Source of the DNA: an uncultured Flavobacteriales bacterium
GTDB taxonomy: Bacteria; Bacteroidota; Bacteroidia; Flavobacteriales_D; Crocinitomicaceae
Assembly: GCA_937973685.1 (NCBI GenBank)
Contig: CALJKJ010000042.1
Coordinates: 1,551 to 65,550, forward strand
Direction: 5' to 3'
DNA length: 64,000 nt
Made by a program: the position numbers and the translations under genes. The notes under the pieces are model-generated. The model was given only the letters and a program-made list of their open reading frames with translations. It was not told the origin of the DNA and did not search any database. Shown here piece after piece: positions 42,718 to 55,481 of the stretch (within the stretch, counting starts at the first letter, position 1; the number at the start of each line of letters is the position of its first letter).

Positions 42718-44514
42718 TTATTTCACAATTAAATTTTGTGTGTAAGTTGCACCATTGTTTAAGATTGAAACTAAGTAGTTACCAGCTTTCAATTCAGCAA
42801 CTGGTAAAGTAACAGTCGTTTTACCTGAAGCATTGTTTACATTTTCTGTAACAACTCGACGTCCAGCTAAATCTGTAATAGTTACGATGTAATCACCACC
42901 TTGTGCATCGAAGTTAACATTTACTAAACCACTTGTAGCAGGATTAGGGAAAACTTCCATAGCGATCGCTGCAGTAACTTCGTTAATAGAAGCAGTTGCG
43001 CTAGCTTTCATTTTATCAAACATAAATTTACCAGTAGCAAAAGTAGGGACACCTGCAACAGCTGTTCCGTTTACTTGGATTTCAATGTTTCCATCGCCGT
43101 AACCAGAATCATATCCATCACCATAAGCATCGTTTACTTCTAATGTATAACATTCGTTAGCAGATAAGTTAAAATTAACATCCGCTTGAACGATTGCACC
43201 ATTTGCAGCGCCATCAGTGTAAGGACCACCAGAAGCTACTGTTGTTCCAGCACCATTTTTAACAGCCCAAGTTGTCTCAGAACCGTAACGGTCAGTTGTA
43301 ACTTTTACAGTTGCAGCTGTTCCATTTGCGACAGTTGCAATATCAATTGCTTTCGTAGCTGATGCTGTTGCACCAATACCACTTGTACCACCATTTACAC
43401 CAGTAATTGTAACAACTACTGAATTTGTACCTTGCGGTGTAAATGCAACGGCAGGAATTTGAATTTCAGCTGAACCAAATTGTGCAATTGGTGTTGAATA
43501 AGTATAAGCAACTGGAGTACCACCATTTACTGAAGTAGAAAAGTTAACTGAAGTAATTGCAGCACCTGAATTTGAAACTCTTACTTTAGGAGCAACTGAT
43601 TCACCTGCACAAAGATTCAACGTATTTGTAATACCCATGTTAGTTAAAGTTGCAACTGGAACATTTGTATAAGTAGGACTTACTTGTGCACCTGTGAAAA
43701 CTTCACTAGTTGTAACAGCATTATGTCCTTGGTGGACTACAGCAAAAAACTCTAATTGACCAATTTCCAATGTTGTTCCAGCAATAGAAGCAGGTAATGT
43801 ATACGTATACGTTTTAGTAATTACACCTGTTGATGAAGCATCAATTGATTCTCCCCAAGTTCCTCCAGTATTGATAAATCCACGGAAAATGTGTTGGTGT
43901 AAATAATTACCATTTGGTAAAATCGCAGCAGTATTGTAAGGACCGTAATTTGATTGAGGACCCTCAAAATTGTTTTGTAAGATACCTACATTTAAAAAAT
44001 GATTTGTACCTGCAGCAAAAGGTGAAGTGTAAAACGCTTCAACTGTAACTGTAACAACTCGCGTTGCTGCATCAATTGTTGCATTCATTGCTAAGTTTAC
44101 TGGAGATGGCTCTGCAAGAACAGTTGTTGCTTGGGCAGCCCAGTTACCACGACCTGTAGAAATACGTGTCATGTCAGATGAATGAGGTCTTCTTTGAACT
44201 GATCCTGCTGGGTAACCAGTTGGATTAAAAAATGTATTCAATGTTGTCCCATCAGTAGTTCTTAAATCTGGCTCACCAGTACCTGGAGTAGCATAAGAAC
44301 CCGCGTGAATGTTTACTAAAACAACACGCCCTGGATTAGCAGCAGCAATATCATTTGCACGTTTGTGTCCATCTGGACAATATCCACAGTGGATACCTGT
44401 TAATTCCTCTAAAACAACATTTTTGTTTAATGGAGTTTGAGAAACAGGGGTGTTCTGTGCGTTTACAACAAATAGTGATAAACAACTAGAAACAAAAAGT
44501 ACTATTTTTTTCAT
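42718..44514 (-). CDS. Secreted Omp28/HBP35-like thioredoxin-fold protein with Ig-like domains and T9SS type-A CTD
   Basis: Signal peptide; VVLEELTGIHCGYCPDG; HQHIFRG; TTDRYGSETTW domain; C-terminal VFPNP...GNYLVS...LIVK. Confidence 0.85.
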   Translation of the reverse strand: MKKIVLFVSSCLSLFVVNAQNTPVSQTPLNKNVVLEELTGIHCGYCPDGHKRANDIAAANPGRVVLVNIHAGSYATPGTGEPDLRTTDGTTLNTFFNPTGYPAGSVQRRPHSSDMTRISTGRGNWAAQATTVLAEPSPVNLAMNATIDAATRVVTVTVEAFYTSPFAAGTNHFLNVGILQNNFEGPQSNYGPYNTAAILPNGNYLHQHIFRGFINTGGTWGESIDASSTGVITKTYTYTLPASIAGTTLEIGQLEFFAVVHQGHNAVTTSEVFTGAQVSPTYTNVPVATLTNMGITNTLNLCAGESVAPKVRVSNSGAAITSVNFSTSVNGGTPVAYTYSTPIAQFGSAEIQIPAVAFTPQGTNSVVVTITGVNGGTSGIGATASATKAIDIATVANGTAATVKVTTDRYGSETTWAVKNGAGTTVASGGPYTDGAANGAIVQADVNFNLSANECYTLEVNDAYGDGYDSGYGDGNIEIQVNGTAVAGVPTFATGKFMFDKMKASATASINEVTAAIAMEVFPNPATSGLVNVNFDAQGGDYIVTITDLAGRRVVTENVNNASGKTTVTLPVAELKAGNYLVSILNNGATYTQNLIVK

Positions 44515-44625
44515 GGTTTAATTTTAGAATAGTCAAATATAACATTGATTATTGACCAATGCAAATATCTGTTGCTTTTTTTAATGAATTATGCTAATTC
44601 GCACAAAACTAAAAGTTTAGCACAT

Positions 44626-44651
44626 AAAAAAAGGAGCTGTAAGCTCCTTTA
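44626..44651. terminator. Intrinsic terminator between the two T9SS cargo genes
   Basis: AAAGGAGC-tgtaa-GCTCCTTT with a flanking A run. Confidence 0.8.
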
Positions 44652-44672
44652 ATAACTATGTTTTGAAATAAA

Positions 44673-45428
44673 TTAGTGTTTTATAACAATGCGTTTTGTT
44701 TGAATAGCAACACCTTTTTCAATGATTGAAACGATATAAACGCCATTTTTCAATTCTGAAACATCAACTTTTTTTGTTTTTGTTGCTGTTTCATCGTAAA
44801 TTATTTTACCCAAAACGTCAACAATTCGAATATCAAATTTATCAAGCCCTTCAGCATTTATTGTTAAAACTGATGAAACCGGGTTTGGATAAACAGAAAT
44901 TGAAACTGGTTCTTTTTCATCAATTGAAGCACACGAAAAGATGACACGTACATCAACCGAGTCAAGGTATGCCCCTCCTTCTTCGTGAACATAATACCTG
45001 TATGTAGCAGTGCCACAATTTTGAGCTACATAATGAATTGCAGCTGAACCAGATTGACCTACTGGAAGTCCTGAAACAGGATTGAATTGACTATCAAAAA
45101 TAGTTAATGGATCAGGAGTAGTCCAATTAATTGCTGCACTTGACGAATAACATTGACCTGCTTCACCTTCGATTCCCCAGCAAATATAATCTTCCCAATT
45201 AGAAGGTATAACTGTTAAGTGTTTACGCGTTATTTTCCAAGATTTATCTGTAGTTCCTATATTTTTAAACAACAACTCAATGTTTGAATCACCGTTTGAA
45301 GTAACTACATGAACAAGTTGCGTCCCGTTTAAAATAGTCGTGTTACCCAGTTTCGTAATTTCAACTTGTGAATGTCCAAATCGTGCAATTGCAACAATCA
45401 CTGCAAATAAAAGTATTAGTTGTTTCAT
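44673..45428 (-). CDS. Small T9SS type-A cargo protein of unknown function
   Basis: Signal peptide, an Ig-like domain with ICWG...QCY, then SVYPNP...GVYIV...KRIVIKH. Confidence 0.8.
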   Translation of the reverse strand: MKQLILLFAVIVAIARFGHSQVEITKLGNTTILNGTQLVHVVTSNGDSNIELLFKNIGTTDKSWKITRKHLTVIPSNWEDYICWGIEGEAGQCYSSSAAINWTTPDPLTIFDSQFNPVSGLPVGQSGSAAIHYVAQNCGTATYRYYVHEEGGAYLDSVDVRVIFSCASIDEKEPVSISVYPNPVSSVLTINAEGLDKFDIRIVDVLGKIIYDETATKTKKVDVSELKNGVYIVSIIEKGVAIQTKRIVIKH

Positions 45429-45623
45429 TCTTTTGTGTTTCCAACAAATTTAATAAAAAAATGTATTCACACTTGCCTAAATTGTTGAAATACGTTAAAA
45501 AAGAAAAAAAGGTATATTGATTTAGTTGTTATTATTTTTCAAAATAGTGCTAAAACATCAACATTTGAATGTATCTTTGATTTACGGCATGAAAATTGAA
45601 ATGCTAACAATAAAATTTGAAAC

Positions 45624-46121
45624 ATGAAAAAAATTGCACTTTTAGTAGTTTGTTTGTCAGTGATGTCAAGCATTTTCTCCCAAAACGATGGTAAAAAAGT
45701 TCCTGCTATTCAACTTACAGACTTGAATGGAAAACCAGTTAATACTGCGAAACTTTTTGAAAATGGTCCAATTGTAATTTCTTTTTGGGCAACTTGGTGC
45801 GCTCCTTGTAAACGTGAACTAAACACTATTCACGAGGAATACGAAGAATGGCAAAAAGAAACAGGTATTACTATCGTTGCTGTTTCTATTGACGATGAAA
45901 AAACAAAAGCACAAGTTCCATTATATGTAAATGGAAAAGGTTGGGAATATGTTGTCTTACTAGATCCAAACTGGGATTTCAAACGTGCAATGGGCGTTGG
46001 AAATGTTCCACATACATTTTTAATAGATGCTGAAGGGAATATCGTTTACTCACACACAGGATACTCTGAAGGTGACGAAGAAAAATTATTGGAAGAAATA
46101 AAAATGTTGAAAAACAGATAA
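45624..46121 (+). CDS. TlpA-family thiol-disulfide reductase, exported
   Basis: SPI-type signal, FWATWCAPC, VAVSID, VPHTFLID. Confidence 0.9.
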   Translation: MKKIALLVVCLSVMSSIFSQNDGKKVPAIQLTDLNGKPVNTAKLFENGPIVISFWATWCAPCKRELNTIHEEYEEWQKETGITIVAVSIDDEKTKAQVPLYVNGKGWEYVVLLDPNWDFKRAMGVGNVPHTFLIDAEGNIVYSHTGYSEGDEEKLLEEIKMLKNR

Positions 46122-46126
46122 GCCGT

Positions 46127-47827
46127 ATGAAAAATTGGTTATTCGGATTAACAACATTTTGTAGTATTCAGTTAACTCTTGGTCAAACCACCAATGATGG
46201 TTCGTTAACTGGAAACATGGAAACAACCTTTCAGTACTTAAATGCAGATTCTTTAATCGGTGCAACTCAACCTGAATCTAAAGGATTGATGAGTTCATAC
46301 ATGAACGTATTTTACCGCAATGGAAACTTCAAAGCAGGAATGCGTGTTGAGTCGTACTTACCTAGAATTCAAGGTTACCCGAATCGTTTTGATGGAACGG
46401 GAATAGGAATGCGCTATATAGGTTATGCGAATGATTTCATTGACATTACACTTGGGCATTTCTATGAACAATTTGGACAAGGTACTGCGCTTCGTGTTTA
46501 TGAAGACCGCAACTTAGGCTATGATAATGTGTTAGATGGAGCACGCATAATATTAAAACCCGTAAAAGGTGTTCAATTAAAAGGTGTTTACGGTTATCAA
46601 CGTTATTCATTCCAGAATGGAAGTGTTGTTAATTCAGCTGGTATTACTCGAGGAGCGGATGCTCAATTTCATTTAAACGACCTCATCAAACCATTAACAA
46701 AAAGTGGGTTAGACATAACGCTTGGCGGTTCATTTGTAAGTAAATACCAAGTTGACAACGATCCCGATTATATATTACCGCAAAACGTAGGTGTTTATGG
46801 TGGTCGTGCAGACATTCGTTATAAAAAATGGACGTTAAATGCCGAGTTTACTCACAAAGACAATGACCCATCAGCTGATAACAATTACAGTTATAATCCA
46901 GGTCACTCTGCGATATTAAATGTTGGTTACTCAAAAAAAGGGTTAGGTATTGTTTTCTCTGCAAAATCAGTAGACAACATGAGCTTTCGATCAGACAGAA
47001 CAAAAGATTTACAAGACTTAATCATTAATTATTTACCTGCATTAAACAAAACTCACTCGTATAATCTTGTCGCTACTCTTTACCCCTATGCAACTCGTCC
47101 AGTTGGTGAAATTGCTTTTCAAGGTGAAGTGTTGTACATGATTCCAAAAGGGAAAATCAACAAGAAATTTGGTGTGCCAATCAATGTCAATTTTTCAACA
47201 GCTTATTTACCTATCAAATCTACTTCAGGAATTAATCCAAATGACTCATCTCGAATTAATTATGTAGGTAAACCATTTAATATGAGCGACTCTTTACTTT
47301 GGAGAGATTTCAATGTGAATGTTACTTATAAATTCACCAAAACATTCTACTTAATTGCTGCTTATTACAACATCTCAATTAACAATGATGTCTCTAAAAT
47401 ATCAGGAGATGCGCATGGGTTAATCCGCTCAAATATTGGAGTAGCTGAGTTGGGTTGGAAAATCAATAAAAACAATAATTTACGCATGGAATTCCAAGCA
47501 TTATTCACTAATAAAATTGATAAGGTTAATGAAGACCAAACGATTTCTCGTGTGAGTAATGACAAGGGAAATTGGGCAACAGTTGTAGCTGAATATTCTA
47601 TTTCGCCAAATTGGTTCTTTGCTGTAATGGATCAATACAATTATGGAAACAACAATCCTGAATTACGATTACATTATTTAATCGGAACTGTTGGTTATTT
47701 GAAAGATGCAACACGTATAGCAGTTAATTATGGCCGTCAACGTGCAGGGTTATTTTGTGTTGGAGGTGTTTGTCGATTTGTTCCAGCTTCCAATGGTTTA
47801 ACATTGACTGTTTCTCATAGTTTCTAA
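46127..47827 (+). CDS. Outer-membrane beta-barrel, DUF6029-like
   Basis: Signal peptide, amphipathic beta strands, GHFYEQFGQG, LGYDNVLDG, C-terminal GRQRAGLFCVGGVCRFVPASNG...F. Confidence 0.7.
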   Translation: MKNWLFGLTTFCSIQLTLGQTTNDGSLTGNMETTFQYLNADSLIGATQPESKGLMSSYMNVFYRNGNFKAGMRVESYLPRIQGYPNRFDGTGIGMRYIGYANDFIDITLGHFYEQFGQGTALRVYEDRNLGYDNVLDGARIILKPVKGVQLKGVYGYQRYSFQNGSVVNSAGITRGADAQFHLNDLIKPLTKSGLDITLGGSFVSKYQVDNDPDYILPQNVGVYGGRADIRYKKWTLNAEFTHKDNDPSADNNYSYNPGHSAILNVGYSKKGLGIVFSAKSVDNMSFRSDRTKDLQDLIINYLPALNKTHSYNLVATLYPYATRPVGEIAFQGEVLYMIPKGKINKKFGVPINVNFSTAYLPIKSTSGINPNDSSRINYVGKPFNMSDSLLWRDFNVNVTYKFTKTFYLIAAYYNISINNDVSKISGDAHGLIRSNIGVAELGWKINKNNNLRMEFQALFTNKIDKVNEDQTISRVSNDKGNWATVVAEYSISPNWFFAVMDQYNYGNNNPELRLHYLIGTVGYLKDATRIAVNYGRQRAGLFCVGGVCRFVPASNGLTLTVSHSF

Positions 47828-47836
47828 TTTATTATC

Positions 47837-48784
47837 ATGAAAAAAATAAGTATATATTTAGGATTCATTCTCTTGCTAGTTATTATTTCAAGTTGTGATA
47901 AAGTAACAAATCCTTATCCACCAACCAGTGGAGGAAATGGTGAACTAGACTGGAGTTTATATCCGGATGGAGATTCTGCTCATTATGCGCAAAATAAATG
48001 GCCAACATTTATTGCTAATACAAATTCATTGCGCAATGTACTCATAGAAGATTTTACAGGTCATACATGTAACAGTTGTCCTGCTGCAGCAACTCTAGCA
48101 CATACCCTAGAAACGAACAATCCAGCACGTGTATTTACGGCAACTATTCATACTGGACCAACAGGAATGGGACCTTTACAAGCTGTCCAATTACCAGACT
48201 ATCCTACAAATTGGACAAATCCACAAGGTTTAGAAATTGGTAAGTATTTTGGGTCAATACCAGGTTCAGCTTTTCAAGGTAATCCACGAGGAACAATCAA
48301 TCGGACAAATAATGGCGGACAATTAACATTACATCCATCTGGCTGGACGAGTAAAGTCAATAGTATTATTGCTGCAAACGATTTAAAAGTAAATGTTCAA
48401 GCACACAGTAATTATTTTGCAAGTACACGTGGTTACTTTTTGCATACAGAACTTGCTCTTTTAGATGCTTCACTTGTTGCAAACCAGTTAGGTATGGTTG
48501 TTTATTTGATAGAAGATTCTATTATCGGCGATCAAAAAATGTCTGATAACTCACACAATCCTACTTATGTTCACCGTGATGTGATGAGAAGTTGTATCGA
48601 TGGAAAAGCTTTTGGAAGAACAATTTCAACCTCAAACCTTTCAACGAATGGCAACTACTATTTGAACTATAGCTACAAATTGCCCGCATCTTATGATCCG
48701 ACAAATACGCATGTGTTGATTTATGTCTACGACAAAACAACCATGGAAATTTATCAAGTCATTGAACACGAAATAATTGAATAA
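47837..48784 (+). CDS. Omp28 family outer-membrane lipoprotein with CxxC
   Basis: Lipobox ISSC; VLIEDFTGHTCNSCPAA; YLIEDSI; HRDVMR. Confidence 0.85.
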   Translation: MKKISIYLGFILLLVIISSCDKVTNPYPPTSGGNGELDWSLYPDGDSAHYAQNKWPTFIANTNSLRNVLIEDFTGHTCNSCPAAATLAHTLETNNPARVFTATIHTGPTGMGPLQAVQLPDYPTNWTNPQGLEIGKYFGSIPGSAFQGNPRGTINRTNNGGQLTLHPSGWTSKVNSIIAANDLKVNVQAHSNYFASTRGYFLHTELALLDASLVANQLGMVVYLIEDSIIGDQKMSDNSHNPTYVHRDVMRSCIDGKAFGRTISTSNLSTNGNYYLNYSYKLPASYDPTNTHVLIYVYDKTTMEIYQVIEHEIIE

Positions 48785-52037: not shown

Positions 52038-55000
52038 TTAGAAAAACGCTTTTAATTCCATTCCGCCAGCATGAACAAAAGGTGAAAGCTGACTTTTTCT
52101 GCCGGAATATTGAATGGCTAATTGCAAACTTTTTGATATGGTTCGTTGATACCCAACGGACCATATTGCGTTTTTACCCGCTTTTAAAGCTTCTAATAAT
52201 TCAAAACCTAATGGAGAATTTGCATTGCCAATAAAATCAATTTGAACGACATTTAATTGAACTTGAAGGCTTCCTTTTTGCGCTTGGTTATATTTGACAG
52301 TACAACCAATATCTTTTACCGTAGCTGATTCTCCCCCTAAATTAATTGCATTTTGTTTCTTCGAATAACGCGCATCCAAACTCAAACGTAAAGTTGTTGA
52401 TGGTTGAAAAACAAGTGATGGTTTCCAAATAAAGTAATTTAATTGATAGTTACGTCCTGTAGTATAATCGACAATAGATTGTTTTTCACCCGTTTCAAAC
52501 GATTGCAATACACTCCATTCTTTGTGAAACGTATACCGACCATTGATACTGTGACTCGCTTTGTATTTACCATCATAACCAGTGGCTAACAATAGTTTTG
52601 ATTGAGAAACATCGTACGAATAATCTGCACTAAAAACCGCACTCGTGCGATTAAAATAAACCGTATGTTTCATATTGGTCGTTGCAGAAATAATATCCTG
52701 GTTATCAATACGTCCTACAAAAGGATTGTACGCGTTGATGCCTTCAAAAAAAGCTGTTTTCCGTTGAATCCGCAAACGACTTTGTGTTGAAAATCGAGCT
52801 AATTGTTTTTTCAATCGGTTGTTTGAAGACGCCCACAAACGTTCTGGTCGAATGGTTAACGATTGATTAAACTCATTCGAATATGTTTTGCTGTATTCAT
52901 TCGAAGGCGTAAAAACACGGATATAACTAGCTTGATCGGCATACGCAGCAATTTCAAATTCATTCAAATCTTTGATATTATCTCCATTATAATCAACCCA
53001 AGTATACACCCCTTGACCATCGTTTACTTTGATATAAATAAACGCTTTTTTCAATTCTAATCCCGCACCTACTTCATAAAAAGTTGTCAATTGCACCGCA
53101 TTCTTTGCAAAGCGCCATTCGTGATCAATCCGACCATTTGTTGTGTTTTCTGGTTGTTGATTGATTAATGTACTATCAACAATTGCAAGTACCCTGTAAT
53201 TACCAATGAGTAATAAGCGTTGGTTTTTCCAATTTTTCTTTGACCACTCAATACTTGCTGTTTTTGCCTTTGCTGCAGTTGCAAATTGGGATAAATTGGA
53301 GCGTCCATCTAACCGTTCTCGGTACGACAATCGAAATTCACCTGATGTTGAATCGCCAAATACGGCATACCCTTGATAATCGAAAAATGAATACGACGCT
53401 GTTGTCAATGTTGTTGCGGATTTATAGGCATTCCATTCTTGATCGGCTTTGTAGCCAACTTTTAGCCAACGGTAACTTTTTGACACATCTACTTTATGGC
53501 GAAAAAACCGATTGCTCGCTACTGTTGTTGCGCTTAACATACTTCCATCTCCTTGAATGCGCAAACCGTTTTTATACCAAGCAACTAAGACTTGACTTTT
53601 TACTCCCGAAAAATCATTTCCAATTTTAAAGTTTTGTGCATTCCATTCAATGGATCCATATTGTTGATGCTTCAACGCTGTTCTGAAGGTTGTATAAATC
53701 TGATTCCCTTCGTAATGTTGATTTCTTGTGTTCCAATCGCGGTCAAATTCAACAGCTCTGTATTGTTCAATTGGTTTAAAAAACGGATCCAATAATTCGC
53801 ATTCGAGTTGGTTTTTCCACGACCATTTTTTAACCGTGTCTTTACCGAAAGGTACGGAATGAGTTAGTTGTGCCCGAAAAGAAAATCCTTTATCGTCTCG
53901 TTTATCTTTCGAAGAAAACGTGTTTTTATCGGTCGTGCTCATAGCGGTTTCAGTCAGTAGGCTCAGGCGATCTGAAAAACGATACTTTCCGCCTAGCGCA
54001 ATTAATTGTTGCTTTTTTGGAGTGATCAACATTTTAACTGGCGCATAATCTCCTTGAGGAATTCCACCAACAGGTTGAAGCCATTTGTACACTTTCCCAA
54101 GCGCATTGAATTTTTCAAAAACATAATCACCATTTCCCTGACCAACGTATGAAAAAGTCACTTTGTAAATAGCTAGTGTTGGATTGATAGATGCAACTAA
54201 AACGGTATCAAATCCCAATGAATCGACTAATTGATACATGACCAAGTTTTCGGAAAAACCAACGGAATCAATGACGAAGCTTTGAGCCAATTCCAAACTG
54301 TCACCAATAGCTGCAAGCAATCCCTTCTGTTGATCGGTTAAATTCTGTTGCAGGGGCTGGTTTTTAACATCTTGTTCCGAATACGCATTGAACCACCAAT
54401 CCATTTTTTTAGTTGTCCCAACTGTTGAAAATTGAAAAAGCGAGCGGGCATAATTTTGATCGGCATATTGAAATTCAATGACAATTCGAATGTCTTTCGT
54501 CATTAAATTACGAGCAGTAAATGTTACTTCGGCAGTGTTGTAATCAATGACATAATCGAATTCTTGACCTCTTTTCATGAGCTTTCCATCAATAAAAACG
54601 CGTTCAGTTCCTGAAAGCACCACAATAAATGGTTCGTTTTCATTCCCGCGCAAACGATATGGTCCTTGATTCCCTTCTATTCCTGTAATTATTTGCCGGT
54701 TGAATTTTCCTTTAGACAACGCACCACTGACTTGTGTTTTAATGGTGTTAGTAGGTTTTGTTTTCCACGTGTATTCGCCTGTTAAACCTTGACCTCGTTT
54801 TTTATACGTCATGAAATAACCTTCGGGTTTACTCAACCAGAAATCACCGACTGTCATTTTAAATTGATCATTAAATAATTGAACAAATACTTGATCAAAT
54901 TCCTGTAATTTATTGGTGTTCCCTTCTGGTTGTATGGGAAGATTATTGTCGGTTACTGAAGCTAATATTTGCAAATTAGGTGCTATGTAACCAGATAATT

Positions 55001-55481
55001 CTAGGTTTAAATTAGAATTTACCGACAAATCCTGTTTGTTTCCAAAAGACACCCCTCGGGCTATACTCCCTGTTTTCTTTAAGCCTGCTGTTTCCATCAA
55101 ATCAATTGGATCATCAGTCGGTGGAATCAAAAATAAATCGCGGTTTCCTTTTGTTACACGGTACAATTGACTGGTATCGCGGTGTTGTTGCATTTGGGCG
55201 AAAGAAATGGGCAAGACACGGTATGTCAAACTGAGACTGTCTATACATTTTTGATTCAAAACTAGTCGTGCTTTTGCATAATCTATTTGATAGTAACTAG
55301 GTAAAAGCACCGCATCACCACAACGAATGACCAGTGAATGGGGTAAGATGGATAAGGTGTCGAATTGAATACTAGCGGTAGAATAAGCGATTTTTTTTGT
55401 GCGTAACGAGCTCAATTGCCCCCAAATTGATTGGGAGAAAAAGACCAAGAATATCATCCAAATAAGTTGTTTGAAACGCAT
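52038..55481 (-). CDS. Large uncharacterised outer-membrane protein with a SprA-like N-terminal half
   Basis: Signal peptide, terminal MELKAFF, beta-rich; GSIARGVSFG, ALSKGK and DYVIDYN echo SprA motifs. Confidence 0.6.
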   Translation of the reverse strand: MRFKQLIWMIFLVFFSQSIWGQLSSLRTKKIAYSTASIQFDTLSILPHSLVIRCGDAVLLPSYYQIDYAKARLVLNQKCIDSLSLTYRVLPISFAQMQQHRDTSQLYRVTKGNRDLFLIPPTDDPIDLMETAGLKKTGSIARGVSFGNKQDLSVNSNLNLELSGYIAPNLQILASVTDNNLPIQPEGNTNKLQEFDQVFVQLFNDQFKMTVGDFWLSKPEGYFMTYKKRGQGLTGEYTWKTKPTNTIKTQVSGALSKGKFNRQIITGIEGNQGPYRLRGNENEPFIVVLSGTERVFIDGKLMKRGQEFDYVIDYNTAEVTFTARNLMTKDIRIVIEFQYADQNYARSLFQFSTVGTTKKMDWWFNAYSEQDVKNQPLQQNLTDQQKGLLAAIGDSLELAQSFVIDSVGFSENLVMYQLVDSLGFDTVLVASINPTLAIYKVTFSYVGQGNGDYVFEKFNALGKVYKWLQPVGGIPQGDYAPVKMLITPKKQQLIALGGKYRFSDRLSLLTETAMSTTDKNTFSSKDKRDDKGFSFRAQLTHSVPFGKDTVKKWSWKNQLECELLDPFFKPIEQYRAVEFDRDWNTRNQHYEGNQIYTTFRTALKHQQYGSIEWNAQNFKIGNDFSGVKSQVLVAWYKNGLRIQGDGSMLSATTVASNRFFRHKVDVSKSYRWLKVGYKADQEWNAYKSATTLTTASYSFFDYQGYAVFGDSTSGEFRLSYRERLDGRSNLSQFATAAKAKTASIEWSKKNWKNQRLLLIGNYRVLAIVDSTLINQQPENTTNGRIDHEWRFAKNAVQLTTFYEVGAGLELKKAFIYIKVNDGQGVYTWVDYNGDNIKDLNEFEIAAYADQASYIRVFTPSNEYSKTYSNEFNQSLTIRPERLWASSNNRLKKQLARFSTQSRLRIQRKTAFFEGINAYNPFVGRIDNQDIISATTNMKHTVYFNRTSAVFSADYSYDVSQSKLLLATGYDGKYKASHSINGRYTFHKEWSVLQSFETGEKQSIVDYTTGRNYQLNYFIWKPSLVFQPSTTLRLSLDARYSKKQNAINLGGESATVKDIGCTVKYNQAQKGSLQVQLNVVQIDFIGNANSPLGFELLEALKAGKNAIWSVGYQRTISKSLQLAIQYSGRKSQLSPFVHAGGMELKAFF

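Follow-up and report, generated by a model that had tools for sequence, protein, structure and literature searches.

A conserved cysteine pair on the last hairpin of a DUF6029 outer-membrane beta-barrel is a candidate thiol-disulfide exchange site in Bacteroidota

What does a lone pair of cysteines do on an outer-membrane beta-barrel that is encoded between two thioredoxin-like proteins? The question is raised by a gene of the family DUF6029 (positions 46127 to 47827, forward strand) in a 64,000-nucleotide stretch of DNA from an uncultured Flavobacteriales bacterium of the Crocinitomicaceae (assembly GCA_937973685.1, contig CALJKJ010000042.1), to which all coordinates refer and which we call the window. 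From Pfam, AlphaFold2, Foldseek, and genome copy count, the gene encodes an outer-membrane beta-barrel of 566 residues and about 24 strands. The evidence below indicates that this barrel, with its motif CVGGVC, probably takes part in a previously undescribed thiol-redox system.

Nucleotides 47756 to 47773 of the forward strand read TGT GTT GGA GGT GTT TGT (TGTGTTGGAGGTGTTTGT) and encode C-V-G-G-V-C (residues 544 to 549) in the context GRQRAGLF-CVGGVC-RFVPASNGLTLTVSHSF, followed by a final Phe566. An earlier note, made from the sequence alone, had described this motif and the terminal phenylalanine, and had named Cys544 and Cys549 as the sole cysteines past the signal peptide. Translation of the open reading frame agreed on all of these points, since the only other cysteine, residue 12, lies within the signal peptide. 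Two random positions in some 540 residues would fall exactly five apart with p of about 0.004. The protein matched Pfam DUF6029 (PF19494) over its full length (E = 1.3e-169; 565.7 bits, where the gathering cutoff is 27 bits), with residues 1 to 566 aligned to model positions 1 to 538 of 538, and it had no other Pfam match. The gene is present in a single copy in the genome (99.98% complete, 2.7 Mb), and its best named relatives come from Fluviicola and Crocinitomicaceae. A signal peptide (assigned by eye only), an even number of strands (24), and a C-terminal beta-signal ending in an aromatic residue place the protein among barrels that depend on the beta-barrel assembly machinery (BAM).

The motif was highly conserved across the family. 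CVGG[VI]C was found in all 120 of the closest homologs (61 to 92% identity). At 29 to 60% identity to the query, C-x4-C was retained by 118 of 119 full-length representatives of 50%-identity clusters, mostly as C-x-G-G-x-C. When 126 sequences were aligned, G547 and C549 were invariant, C544 was present in 125, and G546, R550, P553, G557, and F566 were each conserved in at least 90%; R550, which adjoins C549, was kept in 120 sequences and the terminal phenylalanine in 121. The columns of this alignment define a C-terminal family block, YGRxRxG..C-x-[GSN]-G-x-C-R..P...G....F, which is represented in the barrel by YGRQRAGLFCVGGVCRFVPASNGLTLTVSHSF. Among the most conserved 12-residue stretches of the family, RAGLFCVGGVCR ranks second, at 3.32 bits per column where the whole protein averages 1.96. 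A survey of 301 genomes of the phylum yielded the most divergent members, which retained the pair as CTSGIC, CSNGVC, CTNGVC, or CANGIC, and loci lacking the motif coincided with sequence problems or a premature end of the reading frame. The earlier note had proposed a family alignment as a check on the invariance of C-x-G-G-x-C. That invariance held for the second glycine and the second cysteine; it did not extend strictly to the first cysteine, and the first glycine can be replaced by serine or asparagine. The note had named variation of the motif among homologs as grounds for abandoning its reading; the cysteine pair was complete in all of the 120 closest homologs and in all but one of the 119 cluster representatives. 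As read from these alignments, the family motif is C-x-[G/S/N]-G-[V/I/L]-C, a signature element of DUF6029. The observation is real and highly nonrandom, with conservation as the decisive point.

The barrel gene is embedded in a trio. Upstream of it, a gene at positions 45624 to 46121 (forward strand) encodes a TlpA/ResA-like periplasmic thiol-disulfide oxidoreductase of 165 residues with a Sec signal peptide (Pfam Redoxin, 1e-24); its stop codon precedes the barrel start codon by 5 nt. This protein has the Redoxin fold, the WCxPC motif (W58-C-A-P-C62 by translation, forward-strand positions 45795 to 45809), and the export signal that characterize TlpA/ResA/CcmG reductases, and its best PDB match was 2m72 (1e-42), with ResA at 7e-20. 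Downstream, starting 9 nt past the barrel stop codon, a gene at positions 47837 to 48784 (forward strand) encodes a 315-residue Omp28/HBP35-type lipoprotein (Pfam Omp28, 3e-20) that consists of a lipobox Cys20, a linker of about 45 residues, a thioredoxin-like domain, and a C-terminal Omp28 beta-sandwich. In its AlphaFold2 model, which had a predicted local distance difference test (pLDDT) score of 93, a strand at residues 68 to 74, the C78-x-x-C81 pair, and a helix at residues 81 to 94 form the arrangement of a thioredoxin active site, followed by the Omp28 beta-sandwich. By translation, the pair reads C78-N-S-C81-P (forward-strand positions 48068 to 48082). The best structural match of the lipoprotein was HBP35 of Porphyromonas gingivalis (5y1a; Foldseek E = 2e-13, TM = 0.60), and its family profile matched Omp28 (2r2c, 3e-31) and, over a region spanning CxxC, HBP35 (5y1a, 3.4e-8). 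With CxxC at the N terminus of a helix and an Omp28 sandwich, it belongs to the Omp28/HBP35-type thioredoxin-like proteins. All three proteins of the trio carry a conserved cysteine pair.

This arrangement recurs across Bacteroidota. We compared 80 loci from other species (42 to 67% identity), including records labeled Hymenobacter, Bacteroidales, and Saprospiraceae. A TlpA-like gene was directly upstream of the barrel in 74 of them, always with WCxPC and a signal peptide, and an Omp28-like gene was directly downstream in 73. Where the downstream gene was complete, it encoded a lipoprotein with E[DE][FY]TGHxCxxCP (68/68). In 49 further loci, which included the most divergent, TlpA was still adjacent to the barrel, and almost every gene that followed the barrel encoded a CxxC protein; in distant loci, the genes for TlpA and the barrel overlap by 4 nt versus the 5-nt gap here. 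Domain content showed that, in other classes of the phylum, the barrel gene is immediately followed by one for an Omp28-domain CxxC protein bearing the C-terminal domain of the type IX secretion system (T9SS) (e.g., L118, 3242 to 4891; L120, 3963 to 4979; L122, 6393 to 7418; and L125, 6483 to 7520). Given this sorting domain, the immediate partner of the barrel would be exported to the cell surface in those lineages. In the most distant clade, domain content identified the gene after the barrel as a Redoxin-fold lipoprotein with CPHC (L111, 6381 to 6902; also L112, L129, and L130). The type of partner and the barrel motif variant (GG, NG, or SG) go together, a pattern that is confounded with phylogeny.

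Across genomes, Omp28 and DUF6029 were nearly always found together. The barrel was present in 79 of the 301 sampled genomes (about a quarter), with one gene each. Omp28 exceeded the Pfam cutoff in 48 genomes, all 48 of which encode DUF6029 (Fisher P = 6e-35 across the 301 genomes, uncorrected for phylogeny). Outside the most distant clade, 51 of 52 DUF6029 genomes had an Omp28 match, and the 222 genomes without the barrel yielded only eight subthreshold matches. In the genome studied here, the only two Omp28 genes both lie in the cluster at positions 42718 to 48784 of the window. As judged from gene order and co-occurrence, the barrel is obligatorily associated with one periplasmic thioredoxin-fold protein and with one that would be outside the cell or at the outer membrane. 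The 80-locus linkage and the 301-genome survey thus bind the barrel very tightly to thiol-redox proteins on both sides of the outer membrane.

To place the cysteine pair in the barrel, we ran AlphaFold2 on the 126-sequence alignment and read the model as DSSP assignments and confidence values only. The model had a mean pLDDT of 94 and a predicted template-modeling score (pTM) of 0.89, and the blocks covering residues 531 to 560 scored 98, 92, and 97. DSSP assigned 24 strands, with turns of two to five residues alternating with long loops. Outer-membrane proteins have a standard topology in which the termini and turns are periplasmic and the loops are extracellular. Given this strand pattern, with both termini periplasmic and a C-terminal phenylalanine, the motif would lie on the extracellular side, which is where the earlier note had put it. 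By DSSP, the chain ends with a strand at 516 to 526, a turn at 527 to 528, a strand at 529 to 538 and 541 to 545, the glycines G546 and G547, a strand at 548 to 552 and 555 to 565, and F566. The last hairpin (strands 23 and 24; residues 529 to 566, positions 47711 to 47824, forward strand; delimited by DSSP and column conservation) has arms of 17 to 18 residues that are joined by a two-residue turn. Its arms are interrupted by matched breaks at R539-A540 and P553-A554, which stand beside the conserved G541 and P553 and suggest a kink in the modeled hairpin. Beyond the breaks, the finger formed by residues 541 to 552 overhangs the neighboring strands 516 to 526 and 26 to 38. A lipid-facing pattern (I531, V533, and Y535; L558, L560, V562, and F566) leaves only residues 529 to 536 and 558 to 566 in the membrane, and R537 and R539 sit at the level where basic residues usually contact lipopolysaccharide. 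The finger is hydrophobic on one face (L542, C544, C549, and F551) and on the other (F543, V545, V548, and V552, plus R550), so it is probably packed against the rest of the protein or against a partner.

This geometry departs from that in the earlier note, which had pictured a glycine-flexible loop before the final strand that could be reached from both sides of the membrane. In the model, the motif is instead a two-residue turn that joins outward extensions of the last two strands, and the hairpin is rigid, with a tight Gly-Gly beta-turn between residues 541 to 545 and 548 to 552 (pLDDT of 92 to 98). The overhanging finger holds the cysteines 17 to 22 strand residues away from the periplasmic end of the hairpin, and nothing computed shows periplasmic access. 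In hairpins with a two-residue turn, residues i and i+5 are cross-strand neighbors and occupy the usual position of a hairpin disulfide. Because G546-G547 is such a turn, C544 and C549 would be cross-strand neighbors placed for a disulfide. Disulfides between adjacent strands of one sheet constitute a strained and labile class (PMC1949407). On the predicted geometry, the most likely state of C544 and C549 is a disulfide that bridges the two strands of a beta-finger, which is short, hydrophobic, and protruding.

Column conservation and DSSP placed the top conserved segments of the barrel in its extracellular half. Besides the cysteine finger, the highest conservation was seen in residues 108 to 134, 280 to 330, and 339 to 350, with loop 3 (TLGHFYEQFGQG/RVYEDRNLGYDN), the 43-residue loop 7 (NYLPALNKTHSY, YPYATRPVGEIA), and a 10-residue periplasmic turn (IPKGKINKKFGV). 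Outer-membrane proteins do not usually have their conservation concentrated in extracellular loops. The pattern points to a plug or an active site at the outer mouth, and the periplasmic turn may serve in docking. In the model, the long conserved loops 117 to 135 and 284 to 326 may occupy the lumen. None of the Foldseek matches in the PDB was an informative structural homolog: all were generic large outer-membrane barrels with a query-normalized TM-score (TMq) of at most 0.41 (FimD, BtuB, OprC, MtrB, LptD, and AlgE). A comparison of the family profile with PDB sequences returned only artificial RecA-fusion chains at profile positions 103 to 137, with zero significant stretches, and was discarded as spurious.

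We hypothesize that the cross-strand disulfide on the rigid extracellular finger is the barrel's own thiol-disulfide exchange site and that its partner, at the outer mouth, is the thioredoxin domain of the Omp28/HBP35-type protein. We give this proposal a little less than an even chance. At the mouth of the barrel, the finger pair would exchange thiols and disulfides with a thioredoxin-like partner that is either lipid anchored or exported by the T9SS. Because the barrel is encoded between a TlpA-like reductase and a thioredoxin-like CxxC protein, we think that the pair is more than a structural staple.

Several observations weigh against an exchange function. Linkage assigns the barrel to the module and says nothing of whether its cysteines do the work there. 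The tight turn, predicted at high confidence, is rigid rather than flexible. The first cysteine is absent from 1 of the 119 cluster representatives, and in the most distant clade, where the barrel motif is CTSGIC, residue 550 is tyrosine rather than arginine. The sequence after the lipobox cysteine of the downstream lipoprotein resembles the published surface-export signal of Bacteroidetes, K-(D/E)2 (PMC5080379), only loosely, and its surface exposure is putative. Among the DUF6029 homologs examined, none had selenocysteine in place of cysteine at the barrel motif, and no Omp28_seleno member exceeded the cutoff in the 301 genomes. A candidate selenoprotein variant was rejected, since the sole in-frame TGA in a DUF6029 homolog falls in the middle of the protein, away from the motif. 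The gene concerned (locus L131, G108:C1:113003-114409, minus strand) is a distant homolog in which the TGA interrupts GAS*EYKNY; decay to a pseudogene, a sequencing error, and read-through are all conceivable.

The strongest alternative takes up several of these points. On this view, the disulfide does no more than stiffen the protruding last hairpin, in aid of folding, stability, or the docking of a partner, while the TlpA and Omp28 proteins act on other substrates and the barrel serves as a channel, anchor, or sheath. We regard this as quite possible, although on balance we favor thiol-disulfide exchange. A tight Gly-Gly turn with cysteines at i and i+5, modeled at high local confidence, is the classic geometry of a stapled hairpin, and a disulfide of that kind would produce the same conservation of the motif. 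The distance of the pair from the periplasm and the lack of selenocysteine variants also fit, and the other conserved extracellular segments (108 to 134 and 280 to 330) could form the real functional site. However, the genomic setting is harder to reconcile with a purely structural role. We detected no DsbB, VKOR, or DsbA-like Thioredoxin_4 domain in the genome, and routine structural disulfides are thus not obviously supported. With no evident machinery for routine oxidative folding, a conserved cysteine pair in the envelope stands out, and its permanent oxidation is not guaranteed. In addition, the pair is the sole thiol chemistry that the barrel can offer to two obligatorily linked thioredoxin-fold partners, and conservation of the flanking R539, G541, R550, and P553 goes beyond the needs of a simple staple.

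If the finger is an exchange site, its electrons might come from inside the cell. DsbD is the usual source of electrons for TlpA-like reductases, and the genome encodes a DsbD-type protein (a 654-residue frame with DsbD_TM). The trio might then conduct thiol reducing equivalents through the outer membrane, as a counterpart of DsbD or MtrCAB, a reading that we consider rather unlikely. In such a relay, DsbD would take reducing equivalents from cytoplasmic thioredoxin and hand them to TlpA in the periplasm. Their path would next lead through the lumen of the approximately 24-stranded barrel, with TlpA or the thioredoxin domain of the lipoprotein entering it or the finger dipping in, and the C544/C549 finger would finally deliver them to thioredoxin proteins of the Omp28/HBP35 type at the cell surface. 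The usual geometric estimate gives a 24-stranded barrel a C-alpha diameter of about 45 Å, which in principle leaves room for a small thioredoxin-fold domain, as MtrB does for MtrA. Alternatively, judging from the modeled layout of the lipoprotein, its linker of about 45 residues could thread the pore. The earlier note had seen in the cysteine pair the mechanistic core of a relay, a role that the pair may have.

Known systems provide partial precedents for both ideas. In the N-terminal domain of DsbD (nDsbD), the pair C103-C109 (C-x5-C) sits in an all-beta redox domain that is reduced and reoxidized by thioredoxin-fold partners (PMC3137068). The DUF6029 finger is likewise an all-beta, non-thioredoxin element that carries closely spaced cysteines with glycine between them and stands between two thioredoxin-fold proteins. 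In contrast, nDsbD is a soluble periplasmic immunoglobulin (Ig) domain with a cap loop whose cycling was shown by experiment, whereas the DUF6029 pair is extracellular, belongs to a transmembrane barrel, and is known here from sequence and a model. Homology to nDsbD, with its Ig fold and cap loop, was rejected on both counts: there was no sequence match, and the fold is a transmembrane barrel. MtrCAB offers a similar architecture of a periplasmic redox protein, a large barrel (24 to 26 strands), and a redox lipoprotein at the cell surface, and MtrB carries a conserved cysteine motif of unclear role (PMC12175506). However, the CxxC of MtrB is N-terminal, and electrons in MtrCAB pass through the hemes of MtrA threaded in the barrel, whereas the proteins here are thioredoxin-like and no cytochromes are involved. 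Membership in the MtrB/PioB porin-cytochrome group was rejected, as we found no cytochrome domains among the neighbors of the barrel and the similarity to 6r2q_B was generic (TMq of 0.40). HBP35 and Omp28 (5y1a and 2r2c) are homologs of the downstream partner and not of the barrel; they share with that partner the pattern (V/I)xExFT..CxxCP and the Omp28 beta-sandwich. The CxxC of HBP35 has thioredoxin activity in vitro (PMC2907840). Set against these systems, we view the module as a reductive branch of the DsbD/TlpA type that would reach as far as an outer-membrane barrel.

The pairing of a large barrel with a lipoprotein also invites comparison with LptD and LptE, in which the barrel has functionally important disulfides. 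By that analogy, the cysteines would serve as an assembly checkpoint, kept reduced or correctly oxidized during BAM folding and lipoprotein pairing, with TlpA, the Omp28 protein, or both as dedicated folding factors. We judge this improbable because a lone local i/i+5 pair in a mature barrel with no other cysteine cannot mispair, which leaves an isomerase or reductase nothing to correct. LptD structures were among the generic Foldseek matches, and the translational closeness of the TlpA and barrel genes, in the window and in distant loci alike, would suit a folding factor. However, the disulfides of LptD lie on the periplasmic side, where they connect the N-terminal domain with the barrel, and they are products of the general Dsb enzymes; here, a single local pair sits at the tip of an extracellular hairpin, with dedicated thioredoxin genes adjoining. 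In several classes, moreover, the linked partner is a T9SS-secreted protein and not a plug lipoprotein, and a Pfam search found no homology to LptD or LptE.

A last alternative is that the reduced pair binds Cu(I), Hg, As, Se, or heme at the barrel mouth and that the thioredoxin-like partners process this ligand; TlpA-family proteins serve copper-center assembly in other bacteria. Even though HBP35 binds hemin (PMC2907840) and the copper transporter OprC was among the generic barrel matches, we consider ligand binding very improbable, as cross-strand cysteines about 4 to 5 Å apart over a two-residue turn favor a disulfide over linear metal coordination, no conserved His or Met lies near the pair, and the cluster has no metal-handling genes.

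The literature offered few leads to the function of the barrel. We found only one publication that names DUF6029, which reports distant HHpred similarity to some barrels encoded near OPX genes, in a Wzi-like polysaccharide context (PMC9603273). A Wzi-like polysaccharide porin was nevertheless rejected for this locus: no OPX, Wzi, Wzx, or Wzy genes lie near the barrel locus, Wzi has 18 strands versus about 24 here and fell outside the top 50 structural matches, and the genomic context is invariably thiol-redox. Our search found no publication that links a DUF6029 barrel, its cysteine pair, TlpA, and Omp28/HBP35; what it returned on Omp28-thioredoxin and PG2173-PG2175 consisted of proteome lists. 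In those P. gingivalis papers, PG2175 is a thioredoxin-domain protein, PG2174 an uncharacterized vesicle protein, and PG2173 an Omp28 protein, and the match to the trio is one of gene order and annotation alone.

Other features of the window may extend the module. After the lipobox, the module lipoproteins (residues 20 to 27 here and 52 aligned homologs) share an acidic consensus, C-D-K-[V/I]-[E/D]-N-P-[Y/F]-P, which may represent a module-specific sorting or threading signal. On the minus strand, Pfam and profile searches identified a gene at positions 42718 to 44514 for a divergently encoded Omp28-type protein with a T9SS C-terminal sorting domain, a putative HBP35-like secreted thioredoxin-like cargo whose translation contains C43-G-Y-C46-P (positions 44374 to 44388, minus strand). 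Between this gene and the TlpA-like gene, a further minus-strand frame (positions 44673 to 45428) encodes a 251-residue protein with four cysteines (83, 93, 138, and 166) and a T9SS sorting tail as its sole assigned domain. Most Crocinitomicaceae-type loci keep it in synteny with the trio, and it is a possible client or partner of the module. Close to the cluster, an open reading frame of 1,147 residues (positions 52038 to 55481, minus strand) had no Pfam match at E < 0.001. A scan of the operon for sigma-70 promoters and terminators, which is ill-suited to Bacteroidota promoters, gave no excess of matches over shuffled sequence.

The cell surface of Bacteroidota bears thioredoxin-like proteins of the HBP35 and Omp28 types that are catalytically competent, yet no mechanism is known that would let Gram-negative bacteria deliver thiol reducing power past the periplasm. 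An invariant, outward-facing cysteine pair, locked by gene order between a DsbD-fed reductase and putatively surface-exposed thioredoxin-like proteins, is an obvious candidate for the missing link. Should the pair prove to be a staple only, the module would still define an undescribed outer-membrane complex, with the cysteines as a simple handle for its study. If the pair is redox active, outer-membrane beta-barrels would gain their first thiol-disulfide exchange site, and DUF6029 and Omp28 would each be assigned a function. A true relay would be categorically new and would mean that Bacteroidota have a powered reductase or isomerase at work outside the cell.

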